Below, in pieces: positions 16,134 through 59,025 of a DNA stretch of 64,000 nucleotides. Within the stretch, counting starts at the first letter, position 1. Each line of letters starts with the position of its first letter. Origin of the DNA: Deltaproteobacteria bacterium (GTDB lineage: Bacteria > CG2-30-53-67); the NCBI GenBank assembly GCA_013151235.1, contig JAADIO010000032.1, positions 2,166 to 66,165 on the forward strand. Reading direction: 5' to 3'. Below the pieces are notes generated by a model that was not told the origin of the DNA, made no database searches, and saw only the letters and a program-made list of their open reading frames with translations. The position numbers and the translations under genes were made by a program.

Positions 16134-16135
16134 TT

Positions 16136-27984: not shown

Positions 27985-27987
27985 ACG

Positions 27988-29577: not shown

Positions 29578-29581
29578 CCCC

Positions 29582-30677: not shown

Positions 30678-30696
30678 ACACAAAGGAGGAAATCTT

Positions 30697-41679: not shown

Positions 41680-44232
41680 GTGTTGCGGAAACTTGAAGTT
41701 TGGCGGGTCGCCCTGTATACTCGGATTATGGGGTTGACAATGCACCATCAGTCGGGCCGGCTTCTGGAGATCCTGGACAGTCTGAATATTCCGCTCCTTC
41801 TTCTGGATTCCTCCGGCAAAGTGAAGTCCCACAACGGTATGGTCGAGGAGATCTTCGGGTATTCCTCCGCCGATCTGATCGGTCTTCCCTCGAATAACCT
41901 GATTGCACGATTCATAGCGTCCGAAAGTCCGGTCGGCGTCTCCTCTTCGTCCCCCGATCCTTTCCATGCAGATCTTTCTTCCCCCCTGCAACGGGAGGTG
42001 ACCTGCCGGAGAAAAAACGGTGGGGAATTCCCCGCACAGGTGACTTTCATCCCCTGGGGGGACGGGACCTTCCGGTTGATGGCGGTTCAGGATGTCTCCG
42101 GTCAACGGCGTCTGGAACAGCGTGCCACCCAGCGGACCAAGGAACTGACTCTCTTTAATACCTTCGCAGAGATCTTAAGCCGCGGTGGAAAACCCCGCGC
42201 GCTCCTGCAGGAGACCGTCGATATGCTTCCCGGGATCTTGGGGATTAAGGCCGCGATGATTCACCTACAGGATCAAGAGACCGGGAATCTTGTCCCCGCG
42301 GCCCGGCAGGGATTTGACGCTTCCTTTCTGGCTTCGGTAGGGGAGGTGGAACCGGGACAGGGGTTGTTCGGGAAGGTCCTGACCTCCGGGCTGCCTCTCC
42401 TCGTGGAGAAGGCCTCCGAGGATCCCCGAACGCTCAATTTTGATCTGCATCAGAGCGGTCTTCAAAGCTTTGCCTCCGTACCGGTTTCTTCAAAAGGCGC
42501 CGTCCGGGGGGTCCTGACCGTGGCGAGCCGGCGGGTCTCCTCTTTTACCGCCATGGACATGCAACTTCTTGATGCCCTCGGGAGCCAGTTGGGGATCGCC
42601 ATTGAGAATGCGGAACTGATTGCCCAGCTCAAAGAGAAGATGAACCAGATCGCCCTGACCAATGAATTGAGCGGGACGATCAATTCCAGCCTGAGTATCG
42701 GCACGATCTTCCGGATGATGGTTTCGGAAATCCGGAAGTTGATTGAATACGACCGTGCCGGCCTCTTGCTCTACGATGAGAAGAAGGGGAACCTGTTGAT
42801 CTTCGCCCTCGATACGGGGCTGAAGACGGAGATGACCCGGGGGGTTAAGGCACCCATCGAGGGGACCTCGGCCGGTTGGGCCTTAAAGCATAACCGGCCA
42901 TGGATCAATCGGGACCTGCTCTCGGAGATGCTCTTCCCGCTAGACGGAAAGCTGCGCGACGAGGGGATTCGCTCGACTATCAGCATTCCTTTGACCCAGG
43001 AGAAGAGGCTCGGCGTATTCAACCTCGATAGTCGGGAGGCGGCAAAGTATTCGGAAACGGATCTGCAGATCCTTCTGCCGGTGGCGAAACAGATCTCCAT
43101 CGCGCTGGAGAATGCCCTCCTCTTCGAGGAGATCTCGAGGGAAAAGAAGGAGTGGGAGAAGACCTTTGATGCATTTACGGACATGGTTTGGATCGACGAT
43201 CATCGTCAGCGGATCCTTCGGGCGAATCAAGCCCTGCTCCAGGGGGCAGAGGTGACCATGGCGGGGCTTTCGGACCTCCATTGCGCGAATCTGCTCGACC
43301 GGCTCGGCGTCGGTCCTTCCTGTCTGTGCTGCGAGACCGTAACCACGCAGCGCCAGACCTTCCGGGAGGTTCATGGGCGAGAGGGAAAGATCTTCCATTT
43401 CTGGGCTTATCCTCTCCTCGACGATGAGGGACAGCTCTATGCCGTCCTTCACTATCTCAAGGATGTGACGGAACGCAAAAGGCTGGAACAGCAGCTTCTC
43501 CGGGCGGACAAGCTTGCTTCCCTGGTGACGCTGGTGGCGGGAATCGCTCATGAGATCAACAACCCGCTCGGGATTATCGCCGGTTATGCCGAGGCCCTCC
43601 TTGATCGTGCCGGAGATCCTGCTCTTCGGGGGATGGAAGCCTTTGAGGATTTTCCCGAGTATCTGGATACCATCCACAAGGAGATCTTTCGCTGCAAGGA
43701 GACCCTGGGAAGTCTCCTGGAGTTTGCCCGGCCCCACGGGAGAAAGTCCCGGGAACTCGATATCAATGAACTGCTCAAAGAAGTGATCCTCCTGGTGAAT
43801 CACAAGGCCAAACGTCTTCACTGCCGGATTGAGCATCAGCTCAACCGGGAACTGCCGAAGATCTGTGCCGAACCGGGGAGTCTGCGACAACTCTTCATGA
43901 ATATCATCATTAATTCCCTCTACCATACGCCGGAAGGGGGAAAGATCGAGATTACGACGGAACTCAACCGGAACGATCCGAAAGAGATGATCCAGGTGGC
44001 GATTCGTGACACCGGTCCGGGGATCCGACACGAGGTGATCGACAAGATTTTTGATCCCTTCTTTACGACCAAACCGGTCGGGGAGGGGACCGGATTGGGG
44101 CTTTCCATCTGTCACAAAATTGCAGAGGAACACAACGGGGTGATCGATGTCGAAAGTGAGGTCGGCCGCGGCACGACCTTCTTTATCAAGCTGCCTGCGA
44201 AAGGGAACCATGGCCCGGATACTTGTCGTTGA
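41680..44232 (+). CDS. cytoplasmic sensor histidine kinase (PAS-GAF-GAF-PAS-HisKA-HATPase_c)
   Basis: H-box '[11 protein letters not shown]'. N, G1 and G2 boxes 'DTGPGI', '[10 protein letters not shown]'. No TM segments. Confidence 0.85.
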
Positions 44233-45574
44233 CGACGAAGAACCCTTTCGTCGCCTGCTGAAAAAAGAACTGACCCGGAAAGGGTTTTCCGTTGAGGTGG
44301 CCCCGGAAGGGGAAACGGCGCTGAAACTTTTGAAGGAGAGTGTCTTTGATCTGCTTCTCCTCGATGTTCTGATGCCGGGACTGGACGGAATTTCCGTGAT
44401 GAAACGGCTGCGTAAGGACCCGACGGCGCCGCCGGTGATCGTCTTGACGGGGAAGGCCACGATTGAAACGGCGGTCGAGGCGATGAAGAACGGCGCCTAT
44501 GACTATCTGACGAAACCCTACAAGCTTGATGAGTTGGAAATCGTCATCAACCGAGCCTGTGAATTCGGGAATTTGAAACACAAAAGCCGGGTACTTGAGC
44601 AGGAGCTGGTTCGAAAAGAATCCAAGGTTGAATTTATCGGGGAAAGCCCGCAGTTCCAGGCGATTTTGACGCTGATTCGCAAGATCGCCCCCACCGACTC
44701 CACGGTTCTTATCCAGGGGGAAAGCGGCACCGGCAAGGAGTTGGTGGCGAATGCCATCTGGCATCACAGCCGTCGGAATAATCTGCCTCTTATCGCCCTG
44801 AACTGTGCCACCCTTTCCGAAACCCTCATGGAATCGGAACTTTTCGGACATGAAAAAGGCGCCTTTACCACGGCTTACCGGACCAAGTACGGTATCGTAG
44901 AGGTTGCCGATAAGGGGACCCTCTTCCTGGATGAGGTGGCCGAGATGCCGATGGGACTCCAGGCCAAGCTCCTCCGCTTTCTTGATCGGGGGGAGTTCCG
45001 TCGTGTGGGCGGAAACAAGACCTTGCAGGTCGATGTCCGGATGATTGCTGCGACCAACAAGAATCTGGAGGAACGGGTTCGGCGGAAAACCTTTCGGGAA
45101 GATCTTTTCTATCGCCTCCATGTGATTAATATCAAGATTCCGCCGCTTCGCGAACGTCCGGAGGATATCCGGGACATTGCCCTTCATTTTGCCAAACAAT
45201 ATTCCCGCAAAATAGGAAAGTCGGTCTGGAAGATTGACGCCGATGCCCTGGGGATTCTCCGGCGTTATGCCTGGCCGGGAAATGTTCGGGAGCTGGAAAA
45301 TGAAATCGAGCGGAGTGTGATCCTCTGTGAAGGCGAGGCGATCGGTGTCCACGACCTTTCGATCGCCGATCGGGTTGCAACGCCCACCTCCGGGACGCAG
45401 CCGATGCTGGAGGAGATCGAGAAGGAGTGTATCCTCAGGGTCCTCCGGGAGACCGGCGGCAACCAGACCCGGGCCAGCAAAATCCTCGGCATCAACCGTA
45501 AAACCCTCTACCTAAAACTTCGCAAATACGGTGCACTTACATCGCAGGATAGCGAGATTCCCCCTGAGGTATAG
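44210..45574 (+). CDS. sigma-54-dependent response regulator (NtrC family: REC, AAA+ and Fis-type HTH)
   Basis: Receiver '[21 protein letters not shown]'. Walker A 'GESGTGKE', GAFTGA-like 'GAFTTA', R-finger. C-terminal HTH 'NQTRASKILGINRKTLYLKLRKYG'. The start overlaps the histidine kinase stop. Confidence 0.9.
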   Translation: MARILVVDDEEPFRRLLKKELTRKGFSVEVAPEGETALKLLKESVFDLLLLDVLMPGLDGISVMKRLRKDPTAPPVIVLTGKATIETAVEAMKNGAYDYLTKPYKLDELEIVINRACEFGNLKHKSRVLEQELVRKESKVEFIGESPQFQAILTLIRKIAPTDSTVLIQGESGTGKELVANAIWHHSRRNNLPLIALNCATLSETLMESELFGHEKGAFTTAYRTKYGIVEVADKGTLFLDEVAEMPMGLQAKLLRFLDRGEFRRVGGNKTLQVDVRMIAATNKNLEERVRRKTFREDLFYRLHVINIKIPPLRERPEDIRDIALHFAKQYSRKIGKSVWKIDADALGILRRYAWPGNVRELENEIERSVILCEGEAIGVHDLSIADRVATPTSGTQPMLEEIEKECILRVLRETGGNQTRASKILGINRKTLYLKLRKYGALTSQDSEIPPEV

Positions 45575-45662: not shown

Positions 45663-46070
45663 ATGTTTGATGCTGTTATGGCATGGGATTTGCTGTTCTA
45701 TTACGGTATGAACGATATCCTTTTATGCTCATCGGATCCGATCTTCATAAAGAATCTCTACGGGATTCTCCGGGAGGACGGTTACCGTGTCGATATTGCC
45801 GGCCATGCGTCTATGGCCGTCCGGATGGTTTTTGAAAAGAGTTTTGCAGCGGTGATCCTCGATTCCGATGCTGTCGGTATGTCTTCGGGGGAGGCTGCAC
45901 GTATCATTTTGAGAGTCATCTCGGGGATCCCTGTAATTCTTGCAGGGGAAAGTCTGTTACCCGAGGGGGCGTTTTCGATCAGCAAACCTCTGGATCTGGA
46001 GGAGGTCCTGGAGGTTCTTCGAACCGTTCGTTTAATTCATTTTCCGGAAAGGAGTGTGAGCGGCCTATGA
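45663..46070 (+). CDS. stand-alone CheY-like receiver domain protein (possibly atypical)
   Basis: Receiver-like pattern 'ILLCSSDP' (acidic pocket degenerate), 'AVILDSD', 'PVILAGE', 'SKPLD'. The stop overlaps the start of the next gene. Confidence 0.4.
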   Translation: MFDAVMAWDLLFYYGMNDILLCSSDPIFIKNLYGILREDGYRVDIAGHASMAVRMVFEKSFAAVILDSDAVGMSSGEAARIILRVISGIPVILAGESLLPEGAFSISKPLDLEEVLEVLRTVRLIHFPERSVSGL

Positions 46071-47098
46071 CACCACGAGAGATTATTTTGCAGGCCTTTG
46101 AAGGGGGGAAGCCCGAGCGGGTGCCGGTTTCTCTCTTCGGTGCCGGCATGTGGAGCATCAAGAGTTTTGAAAGCAGTTTCGAGGAGTTGTCGACCGATGC
46201 AGCGAAGATGTCGGATATGTTGGTGACCCTGTCGGACAAACTGTTGTGTGATATTGTCTATGCCGGCTCCGGGTACAACAACTTTCACGCCGCTGCGTTC
46301 GGCGGGGAGATCAAGTTTCGTTCCATGGGAGCGCCGGATCTGAAGGAACATCTCGTTTCCTCCGTGGAGGACATTGAAAAATTTGATCTATCGGCGCTCG
46401 ACAATGAAGCGACCCTCAATATCGTCAAGGATGCCCTGCATCGTACACGGGAACAGATCGGTGACAAATATGTGGTGAGCATGACGGCCTGGGGACCCTT
46501 TACCCTCGGGGCACGTTTCGTCGGGGAAGAGACGATGATGAAGGCGACCTTCAAGAATCCCGACCTGGTCCACCGGGTCACTGATTTTGCAACGGACCTT
46601 CTGATCCATCTTTATGAACCCCTGGTTGATGACGGGACGCTGGAAGTGATCAGTCTGGCCGATCCGACGGCCTCGGGGGACCTGATTTCCCGCAAGCAGT
46701 TTGAAAAGTTTGCCGTTCCCTACCTGAAAAAGTTTACCGACTGGGCCAGATCGAAGAAGGCGTATACCCTCCTGCACATTTGCGGGAATACGACGGACCG
46801 CCTGGATGTGATGCCCGGGACCGGGGCGAGCTGTATCAGCCTGGATCACAAAACCGATATCGGGAAGGCCTATGAGGCACTCCACGGAAGGATCTGTTTT
46901 GCCGGCAATGTGGATCCTGTCGGTGTCATGCTTCAGGGCTCGGTCGACGATGTGGAGAGGGCCTGCCGGGAGGTGATCGAAAGGGCCGGCACGGAGGGGG
47001 GGTTCGTTCTCATGCCGGGATGCGATATTCCGCCGACCGTCCCTTATGAAAATATTCGGAAATTCATCCAGGTCGCGCGGGAGTGGAAATTGACATAA
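46067..47098 (+). CDS. uroporphyrinogen-decarboxylase-family methyltransferase (MtaA/MtbA-like methylcobamide:acceptor or substrate:corrinoid methyltransferase)
   Basis: 343 aa, URO-D/MtaA TIM-barrel family. Conserved His/Cys/Glu zinc-site region around 'HICGNTTDRLD..'. Confidence 0.75.
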   Translation: MTPREIILQAFEGGKPERVPVSLFGAGMWSIKSFESSFEELSTDAAKMSDMLVTLSDKLLCDIVYAGSGYNNFHAAAFGGEIKFRSMGAPDLKEHLVSSVEDIEKFDLSALDNEATLNIVKDALHRTREQIGDKYVVSMTAWGPFTLGARFVGEETMMKATFKNPDLVHRVTDFATDLLIHLYEPLVDDGTLEVISLADPTASGDLISRKQFEKFAVPYLKKFTDWARSKKAYTLLHICGNTTDRLDVMPGTGASCISLDHKTDIGKAYEALHGRICFAGNVDPVGVMLQGSVDDVERACREVIERAGTEGGFVLMPGCDIPPTVPYENIRKFIQVAREWKLT

Positions 47099-47251
47099 GG
47101 CGAAGAGGGGGTAGTAAGTCCGTGTTGTTCAGGTCCCATTGACCTTGTGAGAGAGGGGGTTGTGATGGGTACATTCTGGGAAAATCTCAAAAATATGTTT
47201 GTGCGGACTGTTCCTCCGGGAGCAGCCGGGCAATCGCAGAAAGGAGCTGCC

Positions 47252-47698
47252 ATGGCTGACGAAAAGAAGATGACGCTGGAAGAAGTAAATCAGTATATGC
47301 AGGAAAAGTGCGGGTTCGTGCCGAGGATGTTCAAGATTATCAATACCGTGACGCCGGAGCCCGGCCGAACCTTTGCCGATTTCTACGCGAGCATTTTCGG
47401 GGAGGGCGCACTTTCCAAGAGCGTCAAGGAATTGATGTTCATGTCCGGTGGTGTCGCCTACTGTTCGCCTCGCTGCATCATTCATGTCGTACCGGCGATC
47501 AATGCCGGTGCAACGTCGGAACAGGTCTTCGAGGCGGCGTCCGTCGGGATGATCCTGGCCGGTTTTGTCCCGAACGGTCCGGGAATTCCCTATGCCTTTG
47601 AATATGCCTTGAAGTGCATTGACATCGACACGAAGTTCCGGAAGGGCGAGGAGTGGGAATACCTGCCGCCCCCGAAATTTGATCACGGGATTTACTGA
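47252..47698 (+). CDS. carboxymuconolactone decarboxylase / AhpD-like family protein
   Basis: 'YCSPRCIIH' is an AhpD-like CxxxxH motif. A strong RBS 'AAAGGAG' precedes the ATG at 47252. The longest ORF, from 47147, is less likely. Confidence 0.6.
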   Translation: MADEKKMTLEEVNQYMQEKCGFVPRMFKIINTVTPEPGRTFADFYASIFGEGALSKSVKELMFMSGGVAYCSPRCIIHVVPAINAGATSEQVFEAASVGMILAGFVPNGPGIPYAFEYALKCIDIDTKFRKGEEWEYLPPPKFDHGIY

Positions 47699-47775
47699 GC
47701 GCTTCAGCCGCGGGAGGGGGGAATCCCCCCTCTTTTGCCCCCCTCCTGCGGATTTTACCCATTTTTAATTTAAGG

Positions 47776-48747
47776 ATGATACATATGTTCACCTTTGAAA
47801 CGGAACAAAAGGTTTGCAAGATCGGCGGATTAAAGGTTGGAGGCCGACCGGCGGAAAATCCCCCTCTCCTGATTGCCTCCATGTTTCATAACAAGGACCG
47901 AATCCTGCAGGATCGTAAAGGGAATTTCGACCGCGTCCGGGCGACAGAACTGATCCGGAAGCAGGAAGAGCTGACCGAAGCCACCGGCATTCCCGGTATG
48001 GTGGCCATGATGGCCAATTCCGCCGGGGAAGCAAAGATCTATATCGATTTCTTTGTGGAAACCACCGACATGCCCTTCGCCATCGATATGTGGGTTGCCG
48101 AGAAACGGATGGCCGCGACGGAATATGTGGCGAAGTTAGGTCTGCAGGACCGGTTTGTCTATAACAGTATTACCCCCTGGGACAAGGACATTCCGGGGCA
48201 GGTGCAGCGGGTCAAAGAGCTCGGCATCAAACACGTATTTGTCCAGGCCTTTGATGATGCCGATCAGTCTCCGAAAGGACGGCTGACCTCATTGGAAAAA
48301 TTGCTTGATCAGGGAGCGGGTGATTTCGAGTCGGTCCTTGTCGATTCCTCGGTGATGAATCTTCCCGCTGCCTCTTTCTCCATGCTGGCAAACCGGATGA
48401 TCAAAGAGAAGTTAGGGCTCCCCTGCGGAAGCGCCTATTCCAATGGCACCCACATGTGGAAAGAGGCCAAGGAGATCTGGGGGCTCGACGGTTTCAAGGC
48501 GATGGATGCTGTGGCCCAGGGGATGTCGACGGCCCTCTGGTCGGATTTTAATTTTTACGGTCCCATCGTGACGGCGCCCCGGATCTTCCCCGGTGTGGCC
48601 ACGGCAAACATCCTGCTTTCGACCCTGGTCTTTGATGAAACCGGGGAGGTCTCGGAAAATGAAGACCTGCCGATCCGGAAGCACTTTTCGGAATTTCTTG
48701 AGAAGATGATCGCCGGTGGTGCAAGAAAAAAGGCGCAGGCCCGATAA
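47776..48747 (+). CDS. MtrH-family pterin-binding methyltransferase (methyl-H4folate/H4MPT:corrinoid methyltransferase)
   Basis: N-terminus 'MFTFETEQKVCKIGGLKVGGRPAENPPLLIASMF' matches the archaeal MtrH N-terminus. 323 aa. Confidence 0.7.
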   Translation: MIHMFTFETEQKVCKIGGLKVGGRPAENPPLLIASMFHNKDRILQDRKGNFDRVRATELIRKQEELTEATGIPGMVAMMANSAGEAKIYIDFFVETTDMPFAIDMWVAEKRMAATEYVAKLGLQDRFVYNSITPWDKDIPGQVQRVKELGIKHVFVQAFDDADQSPKGRLTSLEKLLDQGAGDFESVLVDSSVMNLPAASFSMLANRMIKEKLGLPCGSAYSNGTHMWKEAKEIWGLDGFKAMDAVAQGMSTALWSDFNFYGPIVTAPRIFPGVATANILLSTLVFDETGEVSENEDLPIRKHFSEFLEKMIAGGARKKAQAR

Positions 48748-48780
48748 TCGATAACCCTAATATCAGAAGGAGAAAACGTT

Positions 48781-49803
48781 TTGACGGAAACCATGACATC
48801 AAGAGAACGGGTACTGAGACTGTTTCGGGGGGAACCGACGGATCGTCCGGCCTGTTTCAGCGGGATGGGTAATGCGACAACGGAAGGGCTGAACCAGCTC
48901 GGCTACAAGTTTGCCCAGGTTCATCTCGATGCGAAACAGATGGCGGAGACGGCCATGACGACGCCCCGGCTTTTCGGGTTTGACGCCTGCGTCCTTCCGT
49001 TTGACCTCTGTGTCGAAGCGGAAGCGATGGGCGCAAGGATCAATACCTATTCGAACTCGGACGACCTGCTCTATCCCACGATCAAAGAGAAGGTAATCCA
49101 TGGCGAAGAGGAGATGGAGATCAACCTCCCCTCCGACCTGGTCACGCGCGGGCGGATCCCCCTCATGAAGGAGGCGATCGGGATCGCCAGGGAAACCATC
49201 GGAGAGACCGTGGCGATCGGTTCTTACCTGCTCGGACCGTTTACGCTCGCCGGTCAGATCATGGAACTGAACGATCTGCTGAAACTTTCTTTCAAGAAAC
49301 CGGACAAGGTCGGGAAACTTCTGGCCGATCTGACCTGCGTGATCGTGGCGGTTGCGAAGGAGTATGAAGCGGCCGGTGTTGACTACCTGACGGTACGGGA
49401 GATGGGTGCAACCTCCGACGTGTTGAGCCCCAGGGTTTTCAAGAGCCTGATACTGCCCCATCTCAAGAATATTTTCGAACAGATCAGTGTTCCCAGTGTG
49501 CTGCATATCTGCGGCAAGACGAACAACATCGTCGTTCCGATGGTGGAAACGGGTGCGACGGCCATCAGTGTTGACCAGAAGAATGATGTGGTCGACAGCC
49601 GGAAAAAGCTCGGATCCGATGCCCTGATTTTCGGGAACTACGACCCCTATAACGTGCTTGTTTCGGGTACGCCGGAACTGGTCAAAGAGGCGATGCAAAA
49701 GTGTTTGGAAGACGGCGTCAGTGCCGTCTGGCCCGGCTGTGATATCTGGCCCACGGTGCCGGCGGAGAATTTTAAGGCCATGATGGAAACCATGAATGAA
49801 TAG
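48781..49803 (+). CDS. second URO-D/MtaA-family methyltransferase
   Basis: Paralog of 46067..47098 with the same length and fold. Contains 'HICGKTNN'. Confidence 0.75.
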   Translation: MTETMTSRERVLRLFRGEPTDRPACFSGMGNATTEGLNQLGYKFAQVHLDAKQMAETAMTTPRLFGFDACVLPFDLCVEAEAMGARINTYSNSDDLLYPTIKEKVIHGEEEMEINLPSDLVTRGRIPLMKEAIGIARETIGETVAIGSYLLGPFTLAGQIMELNDLLKLSFKKPDKVGKLLADLTCVIVAVAKEYEAAGVDYLTVREMGATSDVLSPRVFKSLILPHLKNIFEQISVPSVLHICGKTNNIVVPMVETGATAISVDQKNDVVDSRKKLGSDALIFGNYDPYNVLVSGTPELVKEAMQKCLEDGVSAVWPGCDIWPTVPAENFKAMMETMNE

Positions 49804-49817
49804 TCAGGAGGCATGGA

Positions 49818-50513
49818 ATGGCAACTGAAGAGAGAACCCGGGAAATCCTGGAGAAAATGGAGAAAGCCGTGATTGAGTATGACGAAGATGCGGCCAAGGA
49901 GGGTGCCCAGGCGGCCCTCGATGAAGGGGTCAATCCCAATGATGCCATCTTCGACGGTCTGGTCAGCGGGATGCAGGAAGTCGGCAAGCTCTTTGAGGCC
50001 GAAGAGTATTTCGTCCCGGAGCTGCTCATGTGCGCCGATGCCCTTTATGCCGGTCTCGATATCTTAAAACCCCATGTGAAACAGCTCGACCTGGGGGTGA
50101 AAGGCTCGGTGGTGATCGGTACCGTGGAGGGAGATGTTCACGATATCGGGAAGAACATCGTGAAGATGATGTTCGATGTCGCCGGGTTTGAGGTCCATGA
50201 CCTGGGACGGGATGTGCCGCTGGATCAGTTTGTTGAGGAACAGATCAAAACCGATTCCGAACTGGTCTGCCTCTCCGCCATGATGACGACGACCATGATG
50301 GGGATGCAGAAGGTCATCGAGGACCTGAAGAAGAAGAATCCCGATATCAAGATCATGATCGGCGGTGCTCCCGTTTCCGGTGATATCGCCGAGAAATGGG
50401 GAGCGGACGGCTATGCCGATGACGCGACCAATGCCCTCGCAGATGCCATCAACATGGTCAGCTCTCTGAAAAAGATGAAGGAAGAAGCGGAAGCCAGGGA
50501 AAAACGGAAGTGA
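49818..50513 (+). CDS. corrinoid (B12-binding) protein, MtaC/MtbC-like
   Basis: N-terminal cap helix domain plus a Rossmann B12 domain. 'GDVHDIGKNIV' is the DxHxxG motif, and 'SAMMTTT' and 'MIGGAP' motifs are present. Confidence 0.85.
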   Translation: MATEERTREILEKMEKAVIEYDEDAAKEGAQAALDEGVNPNDAIFDGLVSGMQEVGKLFEAEEYFVPELLMCADALYAGLDILKPHVKQLDLGVKGSVVIGTVEGDVHDIGKNIVKMMFDVAGFEVHDLGRDVPLDQFVEEQIKTDSELVCLSAMMTTTMMGMQKVIEDLKKKNPDIKIMIGGAPVSGDIAEKWGADGYADDATNALADAINMVSSLKKMKEEAEAREKRK

Positions 50514-51175
50514 GCAGTGCATTCTTGAAAAAGATGCTCCTCGGTTCCGGGGCGACCGTGGTGGGTGTGGCGGAACTGGATGCGTATCTTGACGGAGAGA
50601 TCCGTCATCTCAACCGAGGGGTTTCCATCGCGGTGGACCGGACGCTTCGGGAAGATACCCTGAAACATCTGGGCCGGCTGCAGAAAAAAGTGGTCCGCTA
50701 TCTGAAAGGGAAGGGATTCCGTACCCTCAGTATCCCCCCTGATTCGGACCGCATCCGGAATAAGTTTGTTGCCGAACTTTATTCCCTTTTGACCCACAAG
50801 ATGGCAGCCACCTGCGCGGGGATCGGCTGGATCGGGCGGAATGGGTTACTGATCAGTCCCCATTTCGGGCCGCGGCTTTCCCTGGCGACGGTCCTGACCG
50901 ATGCGCCCCTGAAGAGCGATATTCCCTATGAACAGAGCCGTTGCGGCAATTGCCGGCTTTGTGTTGACTACTGCCCGTCGAAGGCGATCACGGGCAAAAC
51001 CTGGTCCCGGCGGGACCCTTACAGCGGCCTGGTCAAGCCCCACCGGTGTCGTGTACACAAAGAGGGGGCCCGGGGAGTGACGGATCGGCCCAATTGCGGT
51101 CTCTGCCTGCAGATCTGCCCCTACGGGCGGGCGAAAGGGAGGACCAAACCGAAAGATGTTATGGAGATTGTATAA
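50510..51175 (+). CDS. 4Fe-4S dicluster ferredoxin-domain protein (QueG/RdhA N-region-like)
   Basis: Two Cys clusters, 'CGNCRLCVDYCP' and 'CGLCLQICP'. The N-terminal region resembles DUF1730. Confidence 0.5.
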   Translation: MSSAFLKKMLLGSGATVVGVAELDAYLDGEIRHLNRGVSIAVDRTLREDTLKHLGRLQKKVVRYLKGKGFRTLSIPPDSDRIRNKFVAELYSLLTHKMAATCAGIGWIGRNGLLISPHFGPRLSLATVLTDAPLKSDIPYEQSRCGNCRLCVDYCPSKAITGKTWSRRDPYSGLVKPHRCRVHKEGARGVTDRPNCGLCLQICPYGRAKGRTKPKDVMEIV

Positions 51176-51177
51176 AG

Positions 51178-53154
51178 ATGAGCAGCAAATATAAAGTGAA
51201 TTTTCAGCCCTCGGGAAGTCGGGGGGAAGTGGATGCAGGGAAAACCCTCCTTGATGCGGCCCAGCGTTTAGGGGTTGATCTGGAATCAGTCTGTGGCGGC
51301 AAGGGGACCTGCGGGAAATGCAAGGTCCGTGTTGAGGAAGGATATTTTGAAAAAGATGCCATGGAATCAAGAATGTCCCATCTGTCTCCTCTGACGGACG
51401 TGGAACGCAAATTCATCAAACCGGAAGACGGACCCCGAATGCGTTTGGCCTGTGCCGCCGAGGTGCGGGGGGATGTGAAACTTTTCGTGCCGGAAAAGTC
51501 CCGTGCCGGGAAACAGATCGTTCGCAAGGCCGCAAAAGATATTACGATCGCCCTCGACCCCGCCGTGAAAAAATATTGTATCCGGCTGGATGCCCCGACC
51601 CTGCACGATCTTTCCAAGGGGGATCTTGAACGGATTCTGGGGGCGCTGAAAATGGAGTACAACCTGGAAAACCTTGCCATAGACTATCTGGTCCTCCAGA
51701 AGCTCCAGGATATTCTTCGGGCCGGGAACTGGGAGGTGACGGTTTCGGTCTGGAAAGGCAAAGAGATCATCAAGGTGGAGCCGGATTTTGTGGACGTCTC
51801 CTACGGTCTGGCCGTGGATGTCGGGACGACGACGGTGGCAGCCTATCTGTGTGATCTGAACACGGGCAAGGTGCTTAACACCGAATCGATGATGAATCCC
51901 CAGGTCCCGTACGGCGAAGATGTCATGTCGAGGATTACTTACGCCATGACCCATGACGACGGTCTTGCGATCATGCAGAAGGCAATCATCGAGGGCTTAA
52001 ACGATCTGATTGAGAAGATTACCGCCGACATCCGTTCCAACGGAACGCCCGGCGGTACCTCCATCGTCGATATGACGGTGGTTTTTAATACCGCCATGCA
52101 TCACATCTTCCTGGGATTCAACCCGGTCTACATCGGACGGTCTCCCTTTATTCCTGCCGTGCAGGATTGTGTTGATCTCAAGGCACGGGATCTGGGACTT
52201 CAAATCAATGAAGCTTCCTACATTCATGTCCTTCCCATTGAGGCCGGTTTTGTCGGCGCCGACAATGTGGGGGTTCTCATCGCCGAAGAGCCGTACAATT
52301 CCGAGGACAATGTCCTGATTATCGACATCGGGACGAACGGTGAACTCCTCCTCGGGAACAAGCATGCGGTCTGTTCCACTTCCTGCGCTACGGGACCGGC
52401 CTTTGAAGGGGCCCAGATCAAGTTCGGAATGCGAGCCGCCCCGGGAGCGATTGAAAAGGTCCGGATCGATCCGGAGACGAAAGAGCCACAGTACAAGGTG
52501 ATCGGCAAGGCCGACTGGCATACCCATATCAAGGATGTCAATGCCAAGGGGATCTGCGGTTCCGCCATCATCGACGTGATTGCCGAGATGTTCAAGGCGG
52601 GAGTCATCGACAAGTCCGGGAAATTCGTCAAGGATCTTGACATACCCCGCATCCGGAAGGATGCCGACGGCAAACCGGAGTACGTCCTGGCCTGGGCGGA
52701 TGAAACCTCCATCGGGAGCGACATCACCGTGACGCAGGGGGATGTCCGGGCGTTGCAGCTCGCCAAGGGGGCACTCTACGCCGGGGCGAAACTGATGATG
52801 CAGAAGATGGGGATCGAAAAACTCGACCGGGTGGTTCTGGCGGGGGCCTTCGGGAGTCATATCAATACGGAGGCCTCGATGACCCTCGGGATGTTCCCCG
52901 ATTGTGCCATCGAAAAGGTCTATGCCGTGGGGAATGCCGCCGGCGACGGGGCGATCATGGCCCTGCTGAACCTGGGGAAACGACGTGAGGCCGGCGAAAA
53001 GGCCCGGTGGGTCCGGTTCCTGGAGATTGCCGTGGAGCCGGAATTTGAAAAGGAATTCATGAAGGCGATGCATATTCCGCACATGAAGGATCCTTTTCCC
53101 AATCTCAAGTCGTTGCTGGAGAAGGACCATTTGCCGGTGACGATCAAGGGGTGA
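51178..53154 (+). CDS. RACo-type ATP-dependent reductive activator of corrinoid proteins (N-terminal plant-type 2Fe-2S ferredoxin plus ASKHA ATPase, COG3894-like)
   Basis: N-terminus 'CGGKGTCGKCKV' is a [2Fe-2S] motif, followed by a large ASKHA-like domain ('VDVGTTTVAAYL'). 658 aa. Confidence 0.75.
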   Translation: MSSKYKVNFQPSGSRGEVDAGKTLLDAAQRLGVDLESVCGGKGTCGKCKVRVEEGYFEKDAMESRMSHLSPLTDVERKFIKPEDGPRMRLACAAEVRGDVKLFVPEKSRAGKQIVRKAAKDITIALDPAVKKYCIRLDAPTLHDLSKGDLERILGALKMEYNLENLAIDYLVLQKLQDILRAGNWEVTVSVWKGKEIIKVEPDFVDVSYGLAVDVGTTTVAAYLCDLNTGKVLNTESMMNPQVPYGEDVMSRITYAMTHDDGLAIMQKAIIEGLNDLIEKITADIRSNGTPGGTSIVDMTVVFNTAMHHIFLGFNPVYIGRSPFIPAVQDCVDLKARDLGLQINEASYIHVLPIEAGFVGADNVGVLIAEEPYNSEDNVLIIDIGTNGELLLGNKHAVCSTSCATGPAFEGAQIKFGMRAAPGAIEKVRIDPETKEPQYKVIGKADWHTHIKDVNAKGICGSAIIDVIAEMFKAGVIDKSGKFVKDLDIPRIRKDADGKPEYVLAWADETSIGSDITVTQGDVRALQLAKGALYAGAKLMMQKMGIEKLDRVVLAGAFGSHINTEASMTLGMFPDCAIEKVYAVGNAAGDGAIMALLNLGKRREAGEKARWVRFLEIAVEPEFEKEFMKAMHIPHMKDPFPNLKSLLEKDHLPVTIKG

Positions 53155-53164
53155 GACGTCGAAA

Positions 53165-53482
53165 ATGACCCGTGTGAAAATCGACCCGGGCGTCTGTGGT
53201 TTTCCCGCTCTCGTGACGGTCGAAAAAAAGGACAGGCAGCACTTTCGGGTAACGATCGAGTCCAATTGTGAAATGGTACGGAAATTGGGAGAGGAAATTG
53301 CATCCCTGACGATGCAGGATGCCTTCATCCGGTTTTCCGATAACCGGGTCTATGAGAAGGCCTCAACCTGTCTGAAACACACGGCCTGTCCGGTCCCGTC
53401 GGGCATCCTGAAGGCCCTGGAGGTTGAGGCCGGTCTGGCGGTGCCGCGGAACGTAACGGTGGAATTTCTTGCCGGGGAGTGA
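53165..53482 (+). CDS. small hypothetical Cys-containing protein
   Basis: 105 aa. Translationally coupled, with its stop overlapping the next start. No known motif. Confidence 0.35.
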   Translation: MTRVKIDPGVCGFPALVTVEKKDRQHFRVTIESNCEMVRKLGEEIASLTMQDAFIRFSDNRVYEKASTCLKHTACPVPSGILKALEVEAGLAVPRNVTVEFLAGE

Positions 53483-54744
53483 CAGTGATGAGCGACTATC
53501 TTCTGCATTGCCGGAAATGCGGTGCTCTTTTGCAGCCGCAAGAGTCCGCTTCCGGGGTTCATTGTCCCGATGCCTTGATGAAAAGTGAATTTCCCGACCG
53601 GCGGTTCCGCCTTGAGGGGCGTCGGGGGATCTGGCGCTTCAACTGGCTTCCGGTGCATGCACCCCGTGAAGATACCGCCGCACCGGTGGTTTATCACGCG
53701 GAGGGGCTGGGGCGGCGTCTTGGACTTCGGCATCTCTTTGTCGTATTCAACGGTTTCCGGCCGGAAAAGGGGGCGGAGATCGAGACCTGTACCTTCAAAG
53801 AGTTCGAGGCCGAGGTTGTTCTGCAAAACGCACGGGAACTTGGAAAGGGCGGCCTCGTCGTCGCCTCGGCGGGGAATACCGCCCGCGCCTTTGCCCACCT
53901 TTCGATTCGGACCGATTTCCCCGTGTTCATTGTGGTTCCACGCATGTGTCTTCATGAGATGTGGTTTCTGAAGTCGAAGGAGTCCGTTCCGACGGCTGTC
54001 CTGCAGGACGGTGACTATGCCGACGCCATCGATGTGGCCGAGCGGATCGCCCGGATTTCAGGTATTCCCTTCGAAGGAGGGGTACGCAATTCGGCCAAGC
54101 GGGACGGACTCGGTGTCGTACTGATGGAAGCGGTCTCCTTCCTCGGCCGCCTGCCCGATGCCTATTTTCAGGCAGTCGGGAGCGGCGCCGGGGCGGTGGC
54201 CACCTGGGAGATGGCGGAACGGTTTTTGCGGGACGGCCGTTTCGGGAACCGGCTTCCCCGTCTCCACCTGGCACAGAATCTCCCCTTTGCACCCATGTTT
54301 CATGCCTGGAGACGGGGGGAACGGAATCTGAAACCTGAGGACCTTGATCCGGGCCTGATTGAGAAGATTTCCACCCGGGTTCTGTCCAGTCGTTATCCCG
54401 CCTATTCGATTCTGGGGGGGGTCTACGATGCCTTGACGGCATCCGGGGGGAACATGTACGGGATTACCAACGGAGGGATGGCCGAGGCCCGGACGCTCTT
54501 CGAAGAAACGGAAGGGGTCGATATCGTTCCCGCGTCGGCCATTGCCCTGGCGGCACTGAAAGAGGCCGTAGCGGCGGAAGAGGTCTCTCCCGACGAGCTG
54601 ATCCTGCTCAATATCACCGGGGGTGGGGAAAGGGCCATCCGGCGTGCGGGACGTGCCGTCCCGGTGGCGGGAGACGCAATCTCGAAAAATATTACGGATG
54701 ATGAAATCGAAGAACTTTTATGCACAGTCCTGAAAAAGAGCTGA
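53479..54744 (+). CDS. threonine-synthase-fold PLP enzyme, cysteate-synthase-like, with N-terminal Cys4 zinc-ribbon
   Basis: 'CRKCGALL....CPDAL' forms a zinc ribbon. 'TCTFKEFEA' carries the PLP-lysine motif and 'ASAGNTARAF' the glycine loop of fold-type II enzymes. 421 aa. Confidence 0.6.
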   Translation: MTVMSDYLLHCRKCGALLQPQESASGVHCPDALMKSEFPDRRFRLEGRRGIWRFNWLPVHAPREDTAAPVVYHAEGLGRRLGLRHLFVVFNGFRPEKGAEIETCTFKEFEAEVVLQNARELGKGGLVVASAGNTARAFAHLSIRTDFPVFIVVPRMCLHEMWFLKSKESVPTAVLQDGDYADAIDVAERIARISGIPFEGGVRNSAKRDGLGVVLMEAVSFLGRLPDAYFQAVGSGAGAVATWEMAERFLRDGRFGNRLPRLHLAQNLPFAPMFHAWRRGERNLKPEDLDPGLIEKISTRVLSSRYPAYSILGGVYDALTASGGNMYGITNGGMAEARTLFEETEGVDIVPASAIALAALKEAVAAEEVSPDELILLNITGGGERAIRRAGRAVPVAGDAISKNITDDEIEELLCTVLKKS

Positions 54745-55856
54745 TTTCGATTCTGAAAGGGGCGGGCGTCGATCTTCTAGCGACCCTTCCCTGTGACCGG
54801 GTGCGCAACCTGATCGCCCTTGCGGATGCATCGATTGACCGCATCCCTCTGACCCGGGAAGAAGACGGCGTCGGGATTTGTGCCGGAGCGGCCCTGGGCG
54901 GGCGGCGGCCGGCCATGATTGTTCAAAGCTCCGGGATCGGCAATATGATCAACGCCCTTCTCTCCCTGACCGGATTCTATGAACTTCCCTTGGCACTTTT
55001 CGTCAGTCAGCGGGGAGTCTATAAGGAGGGGATCGACGCCCAGGTTCCGATGGGCAAGGTCCTGCCGGGGCTTTTTGAATCCGTGGGGATCGGTTACACT
55101 CTGATCGACCGGTCCGAAGCGATCCCCGCCATCGGGAAGGAACTGGAGTCTCTCTACCGGGAGAAACGGATCCATGCTTTCCTGCTCAGCCCGGCCCTCT
55201 GGGAAGGCTCCCCCCTGGAGATTTCCCAGAGCCTCAAACGCCGCCATTGTGAAGCGATCGATCCTGAACGGGGTCGGGAGAATCCGGCCCCGGTCCTGAC
55301 CCGCTATGGGGTCCTTTCGACCCTCTGTCCCGAACTGGAAGGGCAGGCGGTGATCTGCAATCTGGGGGTCCCGTCGAAGGAACTTCATGCCCTCCTTCCC
55401 CAACCATCGAATTTCTACATGCTGGGCAGCATGGGATTGGCGACGCCCATCGGTCTCGGTGTGGCCTTCTCAACGGACAAACCGGTTTTCGTCATTGACG
55501 GGGACGGCAGTCTGCTTATGAATCCCGGGACCCTGGCGACGGTCGCCATGGCCCGACCGGGGAACCTGACCATTATTGCTGTTGACAATGCCTCCTACGG
55601 TTCCACGGGGGATCAACCGACCCTGACGGCCGGTTGTGTCGATCTGGAACTGGTGGCCCGTGGATTCGGTATCTGTAACTCTGTGAAGGCTGCGTCCCGG
55701 GAGGAGCTGCGGGAGGCGTTGCAGACCCCCTTCGGCGGTGCCCTCTTTGTCCATGCCCTTGCCCTGCCCGGAAATGCCGCCGTCCCCAATATCCCCCTGG
55801 GTGCCCGGGAGATCAAGGAGGGGTTCCAGGCGTTCCTGGAATCCGGGAGGTTATAG
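54720..55856 (+). CDS. fused sulfopyruvate-decarboxylase-like (ComDE-type) thiamine-diphosphate enzyme
   Basis: About 380 aa. N-terminal PYR-like half and C-terminal PP half with 'VIDGDGSLLMNPGTLATVA' (GDG...N ThDP motif). Size and layout match fused ComDE/Ppd-type decarboxylases. Confidence 0.6.
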   Translation: MHSPEKELISILKGAGVDLLATLPCDRVRNLIALADASIDRIPLTREEDGVGICAGAALGGRRPAMIVQSSGIGNMINALLSLTGFYELPLALFVSQRGVYKEGIDAQVPMGKVLPGLFESVGIGYTLIDRSEAIPAIGKELESLYREKRIHAFLLSPALWEGSPLEISQSLKRRHCEAIDPERGRENPAPVLTRYGVLSTLCPELEGQAVICNLGVPSKELHALLPQPSNFYMLGSMGLATPIGLGVAFSTDKPVFVIDGDGSLLMNPGTLATVAMARPGNLTIIAVDNASYGSTGDQPTLTAGCVDLELVARGFGICNSVKAASREELREALQTPFGGALFVHALALPGNAAVPNIPLGAREIKEGFQAFLESGRL

Positions 55857-55891: not shown

Positions 55892-56731
55892 TCAAGGATC
55901 GGGGAGACGGCCACCGTCCGGAGTTGAAAAGTGATCGGGGTTTTTCCGATACTTTTCCGGGATGGTTGCGATCCTCGGTACCGGGCTCAAGGGGTATTGA
56001 TCGACCAGCAGCGTGCAGCCGTAACTCTTCCGTAATTGTTCCGCCGTCAAGACCTCTCCGGGGCGTCCGGTCTTTTCAATTTCCCCCTCCTTCAGAAGAA
56101 GAAGGCGGTCTCCGTAGAGGGCCGCCAGGTTCAGGTCATGGGAAATCATGATCACCGTGATCCGCCGGGTGCGGCGGAGCCGTTCCATCAGATCCATAAT
56201 GCGGGATTGGTGGGAAGGATCGAGGGAGGCCGTCGGTTCATCGAGAAAGATGATCCGGGGTTGCTGGCAGATGGCCCGGGCGATCATGACTCGCTGCCGT
56301 TCTCCGCTGCTTAACTGATCCAGCCGTCTTTCCGCCAGGTGTGTAATGTCGGTAAAGTGCATCGCCTCTTCGGCAATTCGGTAATCCTCACGTTTTTCCA
56401 TGCTCCAAAGCCCGAGATGAGGAGAGCGGCCCATCAGGACCGTTTCCGTAACGGGAAAGGGGAAATCAAGGGGGACCTGCTGTGGGACCACGGCGAGAAG
56501 ACGGGAGAGGGATCGCCGTGAATAATGATGAAGCGCTTTGCCCAGAATGTTAATCTCCCCCCTTTGCGGCTGGATCATGCCGGCGCAGGCCTTGAGTAGT
56601 GTGGTTTTTCCCGCGCCGTTGGGGCCGATGATGATGAAGAATTCCTCCTCCGGGACGTGGAAGGTGAGCCCGTGAAGAATCCCTTTATGTGCATAGTCGA
56701 GATGGAGGTTTTCGACGGAGAGGGCGGTCAT
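55892..56731 (-). CDS. ABC transporter ATP-binding protein (BtuD/FecE family)
   Basis: Walker A 'GPNGAGKTT', signature 'LSGGERQR', Walker B 'IIFLDEPT'. Confidence 0.85.
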   Translation of the reverse strand: MTALSVENLHLDYAHKGILHGLTFHVPEEEFFIIIGPNGAGKTTLLKACAGMIQPQRGEINILGKALHHYSRRSLSRLLAVVPQQVPLDFPFPVTETVLMGRSPHLGLWSMEKREDYRIAEEAMHFTDITHLAERRLDQLSSGERQRVMIARAICQQPRIIFLDEPTASLDPSHQSRIMDLMERLRRTRRITVIMISHDLNLAALYGDRLLLLKEGEIEKTGRPGEVLTAEQLRKSYGCTLLVDQYPLSPVPRIATIPEKYRKNPDHFSTPDGGRLPDP

Positions 56732-57735
56732 TGGTTTGCTCTCCAGAGAAGGTAGACAAAGAGGGGCGCTCCGATCATGGCCGTGATGATTCCCACGGGC
56801 ATTTCCCCTCCGACCGACAGGATGCGTGCCAGGAGGTCGCAGAGAATCAGGTAGGTTGCCCCCCCCAGGATGGAAGCGGGGATCAGCAGGCGATGATCCG
56901 GTCCCAGCACCAGCCGCAGGAGGTGCGGAATCACCAGTCCGACGAATCCCACCAGGCCGGACTGACAGACCACCAGGCTGACCATCAACGACGTCAGGAC
57001 CAGGAGAACCAGGGTGACGGTTTTGACATTTACCCCCATGGAGAGAGCGCTTTCCTTTCCCATTACGAGGAGATTCATCGGACGGGCCAGCAGAAAGATG
57101 ACCAGGAAACAGAGCAGGATCGGAAAGAGGACCGGCAGTTGCCGGGTGCTGACCCGGGAGAGATCTCCCATCAGCCAGAAGAGAATCTGTTGGACCTGTT
57201 CGGATCGGGTAATCGAGATCAGGAAGAGAATGACGGCGGCGCAGAAGGCATTCATCATGACGCCTCCGAGGAGCAGTGCATCCCTGCTCTGCCGGGGCCG
57301 CCCCATGACGAGCAGGAGGATCAGGCCCAGGACCGCCATACTGCCGGTGAAGGCCGCCAGGGGGACTCCCGGAAAAGGGGAAAGCCCGGCCAGCAGCCCG
57401 CCGATCGCCCCGATTGCCGAACCGCCCGAAATGCCGAGGATGTAGGGTTCGGCCAGGGGGTTTCGCAGGAGTGCCTGAAAAACCAGCCCGCCGAGGGAGA
57501 GGGTGGAACCGACGGCGGCTGCCAGGATGACCCGGGGAATCCGGATGCGCCGGATGATGGTGGCGGCGATTGAGTTCTGATCTCCGTAGCCGGCCAGGAT
57601 GGCGAGAGTCCCGGACAGGTCGCTGCCGGAAGAGCCCATGGAGACGCCGAGGAAGGCCGCGATCATCAGCAGTGTGCCGAAGAAGAGTGTGATCGTGATG
57701 AGCTTCCGGGGGAGAGGATGGAACCTAACGTTCAT
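56728..57735 (-). CDS. ABC permease, FecCD/BtuC family
   Basis: About 10 TM helices, with 'TAMIGAPLFVYLL' near the C-terminus. Start trimmed to 'MNVRF' to avoid a large overlap with the upstream gene. Confidence 0.8.
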   Translation of the reverse strand: MNVRFHPLPRKLITITLFFGTLLMIAAFLGVSMGSSGSDLSGTLAILAGYGDQNSIAATIIRRIRIPRVILAAAVGSTLSLGGLVFQALLRNPLAEPYILGISGGSAIGAIGGLLAGLSPFPGVPLAAFTGSMAVLGLILLLVMGRPRQSRDALLLGGVMMNAFCAAVILFLISITRSEQVQQILFWLMGDLSRVSTRQLPVLFPILLCFLVIFLLARPMNLLVMGKESALSMGVNVKTVTLVLLVLTSLMVSLVVCQSGLVGFVGLVIPHLLRLVLGPDHRLLIPASILGGATYLILCDLLARILSVGGEMPVGIITAMIGAPLFVYLLWRANQ

Positions 57736-58990: not shown

Positions 58991-58996
58991 ATCCGA

Positions 58997-59025
58997 ACTT
59001 TACTTGAAAAACCCTGCAGAGTCAA
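58997..59025 (-). promoter_or_regulatory. sigma-70-type promoter for riboswitch/btuFCD transcript
   Basis: Minus strand TTGACT-17 nt-TAAAGT, immediately upstream of the riboswitch. Confidence 0.4.

Follow-up and report, generated by a model that had tools for sequence, protein, structure and literature searches.

A predicted corrinoid-dependent thiol methyltransferase operon joined to coenzyme M-type biosynthetic genes in bacteria

Genes of the methyltransferase operon

We analyzed a 64,000-nucleotide stretch of contig JAADIO010000032.1 (positions 2,166 to 66,165 of the forward strand; GenBank assembly GCA_013151235.1) from a metagenome-assembled genome (MAG) labelled Deltaproteobacteria. This whole stretch is called the window below, and positions are counted from its first nucleotide. 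The window contains an operon on the + strand in which genes of a corrinoid-dependent methyl-transfer system are followed by genes for cysteate synthase (CysS) and sulfopyruvate decarboxylase (ComDE), enzymes of coenzyme M (CoM)-type biosynthesis. From about 41.7 to 55.9 kb the + strand carries a single tight run of genes with small gaps or overlaps. The functional unit, at 45679 to 55856, reaches at both ends past the range of 46067 to 53154 described in an earlier note made from the sequence alone, and a convergent B12 uptake operon adjoins it up to 59001. Gene identities were assigned by Pfam and NCBIfam profile scans with curated cut-offs and by a PDB sequence search, and motif conservation was assessed by aligning the translated genes of related loci, which carry L numbers where they have to be told apart. 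The parts that the earlier note had listed (two MtaA-like URO-D-family proteins, an MtrH-family protein, a B12-binding protein, a ferredoxin-like protein, and RACo) were all recovered on the + strand at the same coordinates, and their homology and intact motifs bear out its view that a bacterium carries the whole of a corrinoid methyl-transfer module together with a dedicated, ATP-dependent activase. That note had missed the downstream CysS and ComDE genes of the same operon, which are the most informative part of the context.

Two genes encode zinc methyltransferases of the URO-D/MtaA family, URO-D #1 (46067 to 47098; PF01208, E 3e-61) and URO-D #2 (48793 to 49803, in an open reading frame [ORF] from 48781; PF01208, E 7e-68). 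The two proteins share only 27% identity, indicating ancient paralogues of different subfamilies and not a recent duplication. Neither is a true uroporphyrinogen decarboxylase, with hemE model scores of 66 to 74 bits against a cut-off of 303, in agreement with the earlier assignment. URO-D #1 fell under every NCBIfam cut-off (TIGR01463, 176 versus 235) and shares 32% identity with MtaA over 237 residues. URO-D #2 scored above the cut-offs of the PRK06252 "methylcobalamin:CoM methyltransferase" model (256 versus 244) and the TIGR01463 MtaA/CmuA model (238.6 versus 235.4), and it can be described as CoM-methylase-like. A zinc site of the form His-x-Cys...Cys (LHICG and PGCDI) is kept in URO-D #1 of 62 relatives and in URO-D #2 of 82, and it aligns with that of MtaA (PDB 4ay7). 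In this superfamily, His-Cys-Cys ligands belong to S- and Se-methyltransferases, and O-demethylases replace Cys with carboxylate or nonligand residues (PMC10418091).

The zinc sites bear directly on the reading given in the earlier note, which took the module for an O-demethylase (methoxydotrophy) or one of the methylamine type and raised the possibility of a transfer from archaea. The Mto, Odm, and Vdm O-demethylase systems are likewise built from a URO-D methyltransferase 1 (MT1), a corrinoid protein, an MtrH-family methyltransferase 2 (MT2), and RACo (PMC8630106). However, the Cys-Cys site is not of the carboxylate O-type, its conservation in both URO-D proteins speaks against O-demethylation, and the profile scores group with CoM methylases rather than with O-demethylases. 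The operon has no MttB-family gene (no MttB, MtmB, or MtbB) and no MtaB partner. Given also the bacterial relatives and the flank-like composition described below, we consider an O-demethylase or methylamine function very improbable.

Use of methanol (MtaABC-type) or of chloromethane (CmuAB-type) was considered as well. Vannelli and colleagues are said to have described, in 1999, the pairing of an MtaA-like with an MtrH-like enzyme in CmuA and CmuB, which would count in favor of chloromethane. JGI and NCBI annotations name URO-D #2 a methanol-corrinoid:CoM methyltransferase or an MtaA/CmuA family protein, and two MAG papers, in passing, read the Nitrospirota "mtaA" as methanol use (one is PMC9326234). 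However, the cluster has no MtaB, its corrinoid domain does not form a fusion like that of CmuA, and the second URO-D enzyme and the sulfonate genes would be left unexplained. We consider the use of either substrate highly improbable.

The gene at 47776 to 48747 encodes a member of the MtrH family (PF02007, E 2e-54), predicted to be a soluble methylcorrinoid:pterin methyltransferase. It passed the model of the soluble subfamily (NF002142, 333.7 bits versus a cut-off of 287) and failed those of true MtrH (TIGR01114 equivalog, 169 versus 271) and of MtgA (152 versus 550), and none of the other mtr genes (mtrA-G) accompanies it. Its best PDB matches were 8z9u_B, annotated as MtrH (E 3e-52), and MtgA of Desulfitobacterium hafniense, 6sj8 (E 8e-36); no paper was found for PDB 8Z9U. 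Soluble MtrH-family proteins are established methylcorrinoid:pterin methyltransferases in D. hafniense, Acetobacterium woodii, and non-methanogenic archaea (PMC8630106). Finding an MtrH-family gene in a bacterium is thus nothing unusual, and the earlier statement that such enzymes are characteristic of methanogens is not supported.

The corrinoid protein (49818 to 50513) consists of a cap and a Rossmann B12 domain (PF02607, B12-binding_2; PF02310, B12-binding) and aligns to MetH residues 639 to 866; its TIGR02370 score was 211.6, against a cut-off of 215.3, and an exact look-up gave no identical protein on record. Its corrinoid motif DVHDIG (DxHxxG) is invariant in all 76 relatives, as would be expected of the B12-binding protein that the earlier note took it for. 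The RACo/RACE ATP-dependent reductive activase lies at 51178 to 53154; its ORF spans 51046 to 53154, the real start is the ATG at 51178, and the protein has 658 residues, exactly as in the public record. All four RACo Pfam domains were matched (Fer2, RACo_linker, Raco_middle, and RACo_C_ter; E down to 5e-96), with an AcsV-like score of 491 bits. Between these two genes, a 221-residue 2x[4Fe-4S] protein (50510 to 51175; Fer4_16) is related to the QueG/RdhA core (QueG, 67 bits; RDH, 61 bits; PDB QueG 5d6s, E 1e-11), matching only the C-terminal half of that catalytic core plus two [4Fe-4S] motifs. The protein is absent from L004, L086, L088, and L089 and is probably an accessory electron donor. 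Taken together, these genes very probably encode a corrinoid-dependent methyltransferase system of the thiol type with a pterin partner, as judged from profile matches and conserved motifs.

Three small proteins complete this part of the operon. Operon gene 1 (45708 to 46070) encodes a receiver-like protein with a weak Response_reg match, whose position is kept in 47 loci. The gene for an AhpD/CMD-like protein (47252 to 47698, in an ORF from the GTG at 47147; PF02627, 24 bits), which the earlier note had omitted although it lies within its range, was found in 52 of 53 loci, and the motif C-SPR-C-x2-H is kept in 66 relatives. The third, at 53165 to 53482, is a Cys3-His protein of the family DUF6951 (PF22263, 113 bits) with invariant C35, C69, H72, and C75. 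An AlphaFold (AF2) model built with 35 homologues was confident, with a predicted local distance difference test score (pLDDT) of 87.9. A PDB sequence search with DUF6951 was empty, and a Foldseek search against the PDB gave no significant match (best E, 0.097). Almost all of the top 30 Foldseek matches, though weak, were to the sulfur acceptors or scaffolds SufE, CsdE, IscU, or SufU, with TM-scores of 0.4 to 0.55. A sulfur-carrier or Fe-S scaffold-like role is thus a possible lead from the model and no demonstration; full-text literature searches found no publication that mentions the family.

In the last two genes, the start of the CysS gene (53479 to 54744) overlaps the DUF6951 stop, and the start of the ComDE gene (54720 to 55856), which is translationally coupled to CysS, overlaps the CysS end. 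CysS scored 448.7 bits against the TIGR03844 cut-off of 324.9, clearing this equivalog cut-off by 124 bits, and matched PDB 9k3c, a solved cysteate synthase, at E 1e-88, versus 5e-13 for threonine synthase. The predicted ComDE is a fusion of the alpha (TIGR03845) and beta (TIGR03846) domains of sulfopyruvate decarboxylase; the alpha domain exceeded its cut-off (179 versus 148), and the protein stayed well under that of the phosphonopyruvate decarboxylase model (191 versus 312.5). CysS (O-phosphoserine plus sulfite to L-cysteate) and ComDE (to sulfoacetaldehyde) catalyze dedicated steps of the Methanosarcina-type ("type 2") CoM pathway (PMC12068725), and their genes are adjacent in methanogens too (PMC4045070).

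Conservation of the cluster across bacterial genomes

More than 3000 homologues of URO-D #2 were found. The best 120 of them, at 69 to 100% identity, came from MAGs labelled Nitrospirota/Thermodesulfovibrionales, Deltaproteobacteria, "Ca. Sulfotelmatobacter," Betaproteobacteria, and Thermoleophilia. When every GTDB species was scanned through a single genome, 80 loci were obtained, nearly all in Nitrospirota/Thermodesulfovibrionia MAGs, with the others in Rokubacteria, Thermoleophilia, Betaproteobacteria, Dissulfurispiraceae, and "Ca. Sulfobium"; none was titled as a cultured isolate. In a tblastn census, 53 loci had enough upstream sequence, and the order URO-D #1, AhpD/CMD-like protein, MtrH family, URO-D #2, and corrinoid protein was the same in 52 of them. 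Among the 44 informative loci, in which the sequence continued for 6 kb or more past RACo, DUF6951 was found in 43, and CysS and ComDE lay just 3' in 39. This linkage spans genomes labelled Nitrospirota, Acidobacteriota, Thermoleophilia, Rokubacteria, and Betaproteobacteria. It was also seen reciprocally, as two cysteate synthase homologues from an independent CysS search sit in the same cluster.

Further genes accompany the cluster in its relatives. A HdrD-like CCG Fe-S protein was present in 35 of the 44 informative loci, usually together with a NarI/DsrM-like membrane protein and between DUF6951 and CysS (examples are L001 at 14792 to 16706, L002, L004, L086, and L087); L006, L008, and L009 lack the pair. 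The best family of the HdrD-like protein was TfrB, the CoM/CoB-thiol-oxidizing subunit of thiol:fumarate reductase (191 bits; DsrK, 96 bits), and its PDB matches were confined to the CCG region of HdrB. One possible function of the pair is that of a quinol-linked thiol/disulfide reductase acting on the cofactor. We also considered the HdrD-like Fer4_8+CCG protein, of about 400 residues, as a candidate for ComF/MMP16, the last step of archaeal CoM biosynthesis. This was rejected because it scores as TfrB/HdrD/DsrK-like, and MMP16 is a COG1900 plus ferredoxin protein.

An ATP-binding cassette (ABC) importer adjoins DUF6951 in seven loci of the genome scan. L090 was examined closely: its binding protein scores above the cut-off of the aliphatic-sulfonate SsuA family (193 versus 163.5), the permease is TauC/SaoP-like, and the ATPase is TauB/SaoA-like. 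CysS and ComDE follow a few kilobases further 3' in the extended L090 sequence; their apparent loss from importer-bearing loci was discarded, since the sequence had ended too early.

Other neighbors recur outside the window's own gene set. A CobW/ZigA-type metallochaperone GTPase is often encoded divergently just 5' of the cluster (L001, 5776 to 6648; L002, 5335 to 6210; L090, 1151 to 1978), and a conserved protein of about 200 residues without a family match is often found 3' of it. Neither is in the window. In the Nitrospirota locus L049, which has no nearby CysS/ComDE, DUF6951 is followed (14680 to 17809) by two radical SAM proteins, one of them B12-binding, and a SAM-dependent methyltransferase.

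For more distant relatives we searched a library of 1.84 billion proteins represented at 50% identity. The URO-D #2 family collapsed to representatives at 53% identity, and the next relatives were at 40 to 46%. Of the nearest clusters, the ten that were looked up were bacterial wherever named (Desulfotomaculum, Anaerolineae, Desulfobacterales, Dehalococcoidales, and Deltaproteobacteria). The operon genes each have a GC content of 0.51 to 0.61 and a third-position GC content (GC3) of 0.55 to 0.71, within the range of the flanking housekeeping genes, so that composition gives no sign of recent import into this genome. An archaeal origin with recent transfer, which the earlier note had raised, was therefore rejected on both the nearest-neighbor and the composition check. 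The phyletic pattern does imply transfer of the operon among bacterial phyla.

Two of the distant clusters are arranged differently. In L088, a Desulfotomaculum MAG, the order is URO-D, corrinoid protein, RACo, MtrH family, URO-D, and DUF6951. In L089 it is AhpD/CMD-like protein, URO-D, DUF6951, RACo, an importer (SsuA-type binding protein, permease, and ATPase), a fusion of the MtrH family with URO-D #2, and corrinoid protein; NarI-like and HdrD-like genes, a Rieske protein, and cytochromes b and c are encoded nearby. The fusion (9900 to 11888; GCA_041548145.1, JBFETD010000022.1) has 662 residues with both the MtrH-family and the URO-D #2-like domain at full length. As a Rosetta-stone protein, it argues that URO-D #2 and the pterin methyltransferase work together on one corrinoid protein, in paired half-reactions.

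These patterns also bear on the catabolism of methylated sulfur compounds. In that case URO-D #1, URO-D #2, or both would take methyl groups from dimethyl sulfide, methanethiol, or methylmercaptopropionate and load them onto the corrinoid protein, the MtrH-family enzyme would hand them on to tetrahydrofolate, to be oxidized or assimilated, and CysS and ComDE would serve otherwise, in making a sulfonate solute or handling sulfite, with no CoM involved. The His-Cys-Cys sites suit thioether substrates, an MT1, corrinoid protein, pterin-dependent MT2, and activase are the standard design of bacterial methylotrophy (PMC10418091, PMC8630106), the hosts are anaerobes that take part in sulfur cycling and carry Wood-Ljungdahl genes (PMC9326234), and L088 has the methyltransferase core without CysS and ComDE. 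However, such catabolism would not explain why CysS and ComDE are part of the operon in 39 of the 44 loci and in five labelled lineages, nor why independently sampled CysS genes lie in the cluster. It also leaves the sulfonate-type importer and the MtrH-family::URO-D #2 fusion unexplained, and sulfoacetaldehyde has no known role in thioether catabolism. We therefore regard it as unlikely.

A possible CoM-linked methyl-transfer pathway

The explanation that we favor, tentatively, is a split, MetH-like methyl-tetrahydrofolate:thiol methyltransferase under sigma-54 control, the thiol being CoM or a close sulfonated analogue. The substrates, the direction of transfer, and the making of CoM itself are here inferred from the observed gene content, motifs, synteny, fusion, and promoter. 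In this scheme, RACo would use ATP to bring the corrinoid protein to the Co(I) state, probably with electrons from the 2x[4Fe-4S] protein, and the MtrH-family enzyme would exchange a methyl group between the corrinoid protein and methyl-tetrahydrofolate. The His-Cys-Cys zinc of URO-D #2 would activate the thiol, so that the methyl group could move between thiol and corrinoid. URO-D #1, a predicted second thiol/thioether methyltransferase, would do the same with another thiol or thioether, such as methanethiol, dimethyl sulfide, methylmercaptopropionate, or even methyl-CoM. The carbon-sulfonate skeleton of CoM would come from the operon's own CysS and ComDE (phosphoserine plus sulfite to cysteate, sulfopyruvate, and sulfoacetaldehyde), and in some relatives the sulfonate-type ABC importer of the cluster would import the thiol or its analogue. 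Thiolation might be carried out by an enzyme encoded elsewhere in the genome, by sulfide chemistry, or by DUF6951, the AhpD-like protein, and, in relatives, the HdrD/NarI-like proteins; alternatively, these proteins may keep the thiol reduced.

Methylation of a thiol is the thermodynamically downhill direction of methyl transfer. The favored flow would therefore run from methyl-tetrahydrofolate, or from a methylated sulfur compound by way of URO-D #1, to the corrinoid protein and on to CoM. The conserved sigma-54 promoter and the adjoining riboswitch-controlled B12 uptake genes described below would fit a regulated pathway with a high demand for B12.

The proposed system shares features with several known ones. 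Like the methanogen enzymes MtaA, MtbA, and MtsA, it has a URO-D fold with His-Cys-Cys ligands, a URO-D #2 that passes the CoM-methyltransferase subfamily model, a free-standing corrinoid protein resembling MtaC/MtbC, and an activase that depends on ATP (RamA-type in the methanogens). It differs from them in the bacterial host, which lacks methyl-CoM reductase, and in having a pterin methyltransferase partner instead of an MtaB/MttB-type loader. With MtgABC of D. hafniense and Mto of Methermicoccus it has in common a single operon that encodes a soluble MtrH-family MT2 together with a corrinoid protein and an activase of the RACo type. In contrast to these, its substrate enzymes are two thiol-type URO-D proteins and not an MttB-family enzyme or O-demethylase, and sulfonate-cofactor genes are attached. 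The neighboring CysS and fused ComDE, in the same order, resemble Methanosarcina-type CoM biosynthesis (CysS, aminotransferase, ComDE, and ComF/MMP16), which differs in its host and in its COG1900 ComF.

The likeness to MetH and to the type 1 mlp clusters raises a further alternative: a split cobalamin-dependent methionine synthase, or methionine salvage or methyl-selenide recycling of the type 1 mlp kind, in which one URO-D protein would methylate homocysteine, sulfide, or selenide. The layout of zinc-thiol, pterin, MetH-like cap/B12, and reactivation modules mirrors MetH. Here, however, each module is a protein of its own (apart from the one fusion, in L089), the URO-D type of thiol module takes the place of a Hcy domain, and reactivation is by ATP-dependent RACo, whereas MetH uses S-adenosylmethionine (SAM) and flavodoxin. 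Type 1 mlp clusters (Kountz & Balskus 2023, PMC10418091) likewise combine several SCMT-like URO-D proteins with His-Cys-Cys sites, a corrinoid protein, and RACE, co-directionally, in non-methanogenic anaerobes; they have been proposed to act in methyl-sulfur and methyl-selenium metabolism, and ClMlp2 methylates selenide in vitro (PMC10418091). The present operon does contain two Mlp-like URO-D proteins with a corrinoid protein and Ram, co-directional and with gaps under 2 kb. The published definition of an mlp gene cluster, however, allows no pterin methylase within 20 kb, and the MtrH-family gene between the two URO-D genes excludes the operon from type 1 as defined in that paper (PMC10418091). 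Most mlp clusters are from Firmicutes and linked to selenium or methionine salvage, whereas those described here are mainly from Nitrospirota and carry DUF6951, the AhpD-like gene, CysS, and ComDE; Nitrospirota, MtrH, and cysteate synthase are not mentioned in PMC10418091. The AhpD-like and CobW neighbors do recall selenoprotein-linked families. No selenium (sel) genes were found in any locus, and the conserved sulfonate genes would again be unexplained; a MetH- or Mlp-type function is accordingly rather improbable in our judgment.

Several observations weigh against CoM as the thiol of the favored methyl-tetrahydrofolate:thiol methyltransferase. To our knowledge, there is no known sink for methyl-CoM in organisms without methyl-CoM reductase, which is the weakest point of the model. 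URO-D #2 stays under the equivalog cut-offs of MtaA (242 versus 400) and MtbA (171 versus 600). Its match to Methanosarcina mazei MtaA (PDB 4ay7, E 8e-45) has 31% identity over 334 residues, which is no closer than that of many unrelated family members. The ComDE beta domain is just under its TIGR03846 cut-off (206 versus 221.5). In 5 of the 44 informative loci and in L088, CysS and ComDE were not seen nearby, and two of these five loci have unrelated genes 3'. The HdrD/NarI-like pair is absent from the window itself, and the MtrH-family::URO-D #2 fusion is one protein cluster found on two contigs only. No reports of CoM from these phyla were found. Finally, ComF/MMP16 (COG1900) was found neither among the scanned ORFs of the window nor in the gene lists of L001 to L005 and L086 to L090, so that CoM synthesis is incomplete as encoded here. 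The homocysteine-forming COG1900 enzyme is a possible partial substitute for ComF, and the slow reaction of sulfoacetaldehyde with sulfide is another; a COG1900 enzyme is present in many sulfate reducers (PMC4045070).

Such a conserved coupling of a corrinoid methyltransferase system to CoM-type biosynthesis is unprecedented in bacteria; in full-text searches, no publication turned up that connects cysteate synthase or ComDE of bacteria with MtaA/MtrH clusters. A broader proposal is that anaerobes labelled as at least five lineages make CoM by the cysteate route and use it as a methyl carrier, through a soluble methyl-tetrahydrofolate:CoM methyltransferase; the CoM disulfide would be dealt with by a membrane enzyme resembling HdrDE. 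We consider this possible but doubtful. [quoted passage not shown] Three CoM biosynthetic routes are recognized, and the sole bacterial one is the unrelated Xanthobacter pathway (PMC12068725). If the proposal is true, one-carbon metabolism that depends on CoM would be known for the first time from organisms other than archaea, and bacteria would have a second route to CoM, independent of the first. The proposal would bring CoM biology into new phyla, among widespread sulfur-cycling bacteria of the subsurface, peat, and sediment, by way of a horizontally mobile operon, and it would reveal an unrecognized tie between methyl-group and sulfur cycling. Metagenomic matches to "mtaA," "mtrH," "comDE," and "cysteate synthase," which are now taken as methanogen markers or as "methanol use," would need to be reread. 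As a speculation, such bacteria might supply CoM or methyl-CoM to neighboring methanogens.

Regulation, corrinoid supply, and genomic setting

A perfect sigma-54 (-24/-12) promoter element, TGGCATGGGATTTGCT, lies at 45679 to 45694 on the + strand. Two matches to the element occur in the window, versus 0.02 expected by chance, and an element of the same form lies 5' of URO-D #1 in 44 of 59 related loci, mostly about 390 to 410 nucleotides before its start. We placed the start of operon gene 1 at the ATG at 45708 and not at 45663, because an ORF from 45663 would overlap the promoter. Directly upstream on the + strand are genes for a PAS/GAF sensor histidine kinase (41680 to 44232; Pfam PAS, two GAF, HisKA, and HATPase_c), the probable sensor of the operon, and, adjoining it, an NtrC-type sigma-54-dependent response regulator (44147 to 45574; Response_reg, Sigma54_activat, and HTH_8). 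The two ORFs overlap by 86 nucleotides (44147 to 44232), and the true start of the regulator is probably about 21 codons further 3', as the representative of its 90% cluster has 454 residues versus 475 in the ORF. The promoter, the adjoining activator, and the kinase indicate an operon that would be switched on by a signal via the sigma-54 system.

Convergent to the operon, a btuD-btuC-btuF-like corrinoid ABC uptake operon occupies 55892 to 58690 on the - strand (ABC_tran, FecCD, and Peripla_BP_2; the best NCBIfam matches were BtuC and BtuF). It is preceded by a cobalamin riboswitch at 58815 to 59001 on the - strand (RF00174, 104.7 bits, E 4e-25), with a terminator-like hairpin and T-run at 58762 to 58737 between the riboswitch and btuF. 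The btu operon probably supplies B12 to the methyltransferase operon.

The window carries several markers of a bacterial host, namely, the cobalamin riboswitch, the sigma-54 activator, AsmA, DnaK/DnaJ, a type IV pilus, and PEP-CTERM/exosortase genes. The source MAG is labelled Deltaproteobacteria; the closest relatives of the cluster genes, and also of a flanking GH57 gene, are in MAGs labelled Nitrospirota.

The second perfect sigma-54-like element, TGGCATCGTATTTGCT, is at 35119 to 35134 on the + strand, about 700 nucleotides 5' of a PilZ-domain gene (35835 to 36542). The region from 1 to 34150 holds a large exopolysaccharide/exosortase locus (EpsH, PEP-CTERM) on the - strand and a set of genes resembling a type IV pilus or type II secretion system (24194 to 33248). 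The exopolysaccharide/exosortase, type IV pilus, GH57, and AsmA genes that make up the remainder of the window are unrelated to the operon. The GC content dips to 0.44 to 0.48 at 1 to 6 kb, 14 to 20 kb, and 34 to 36 kb.

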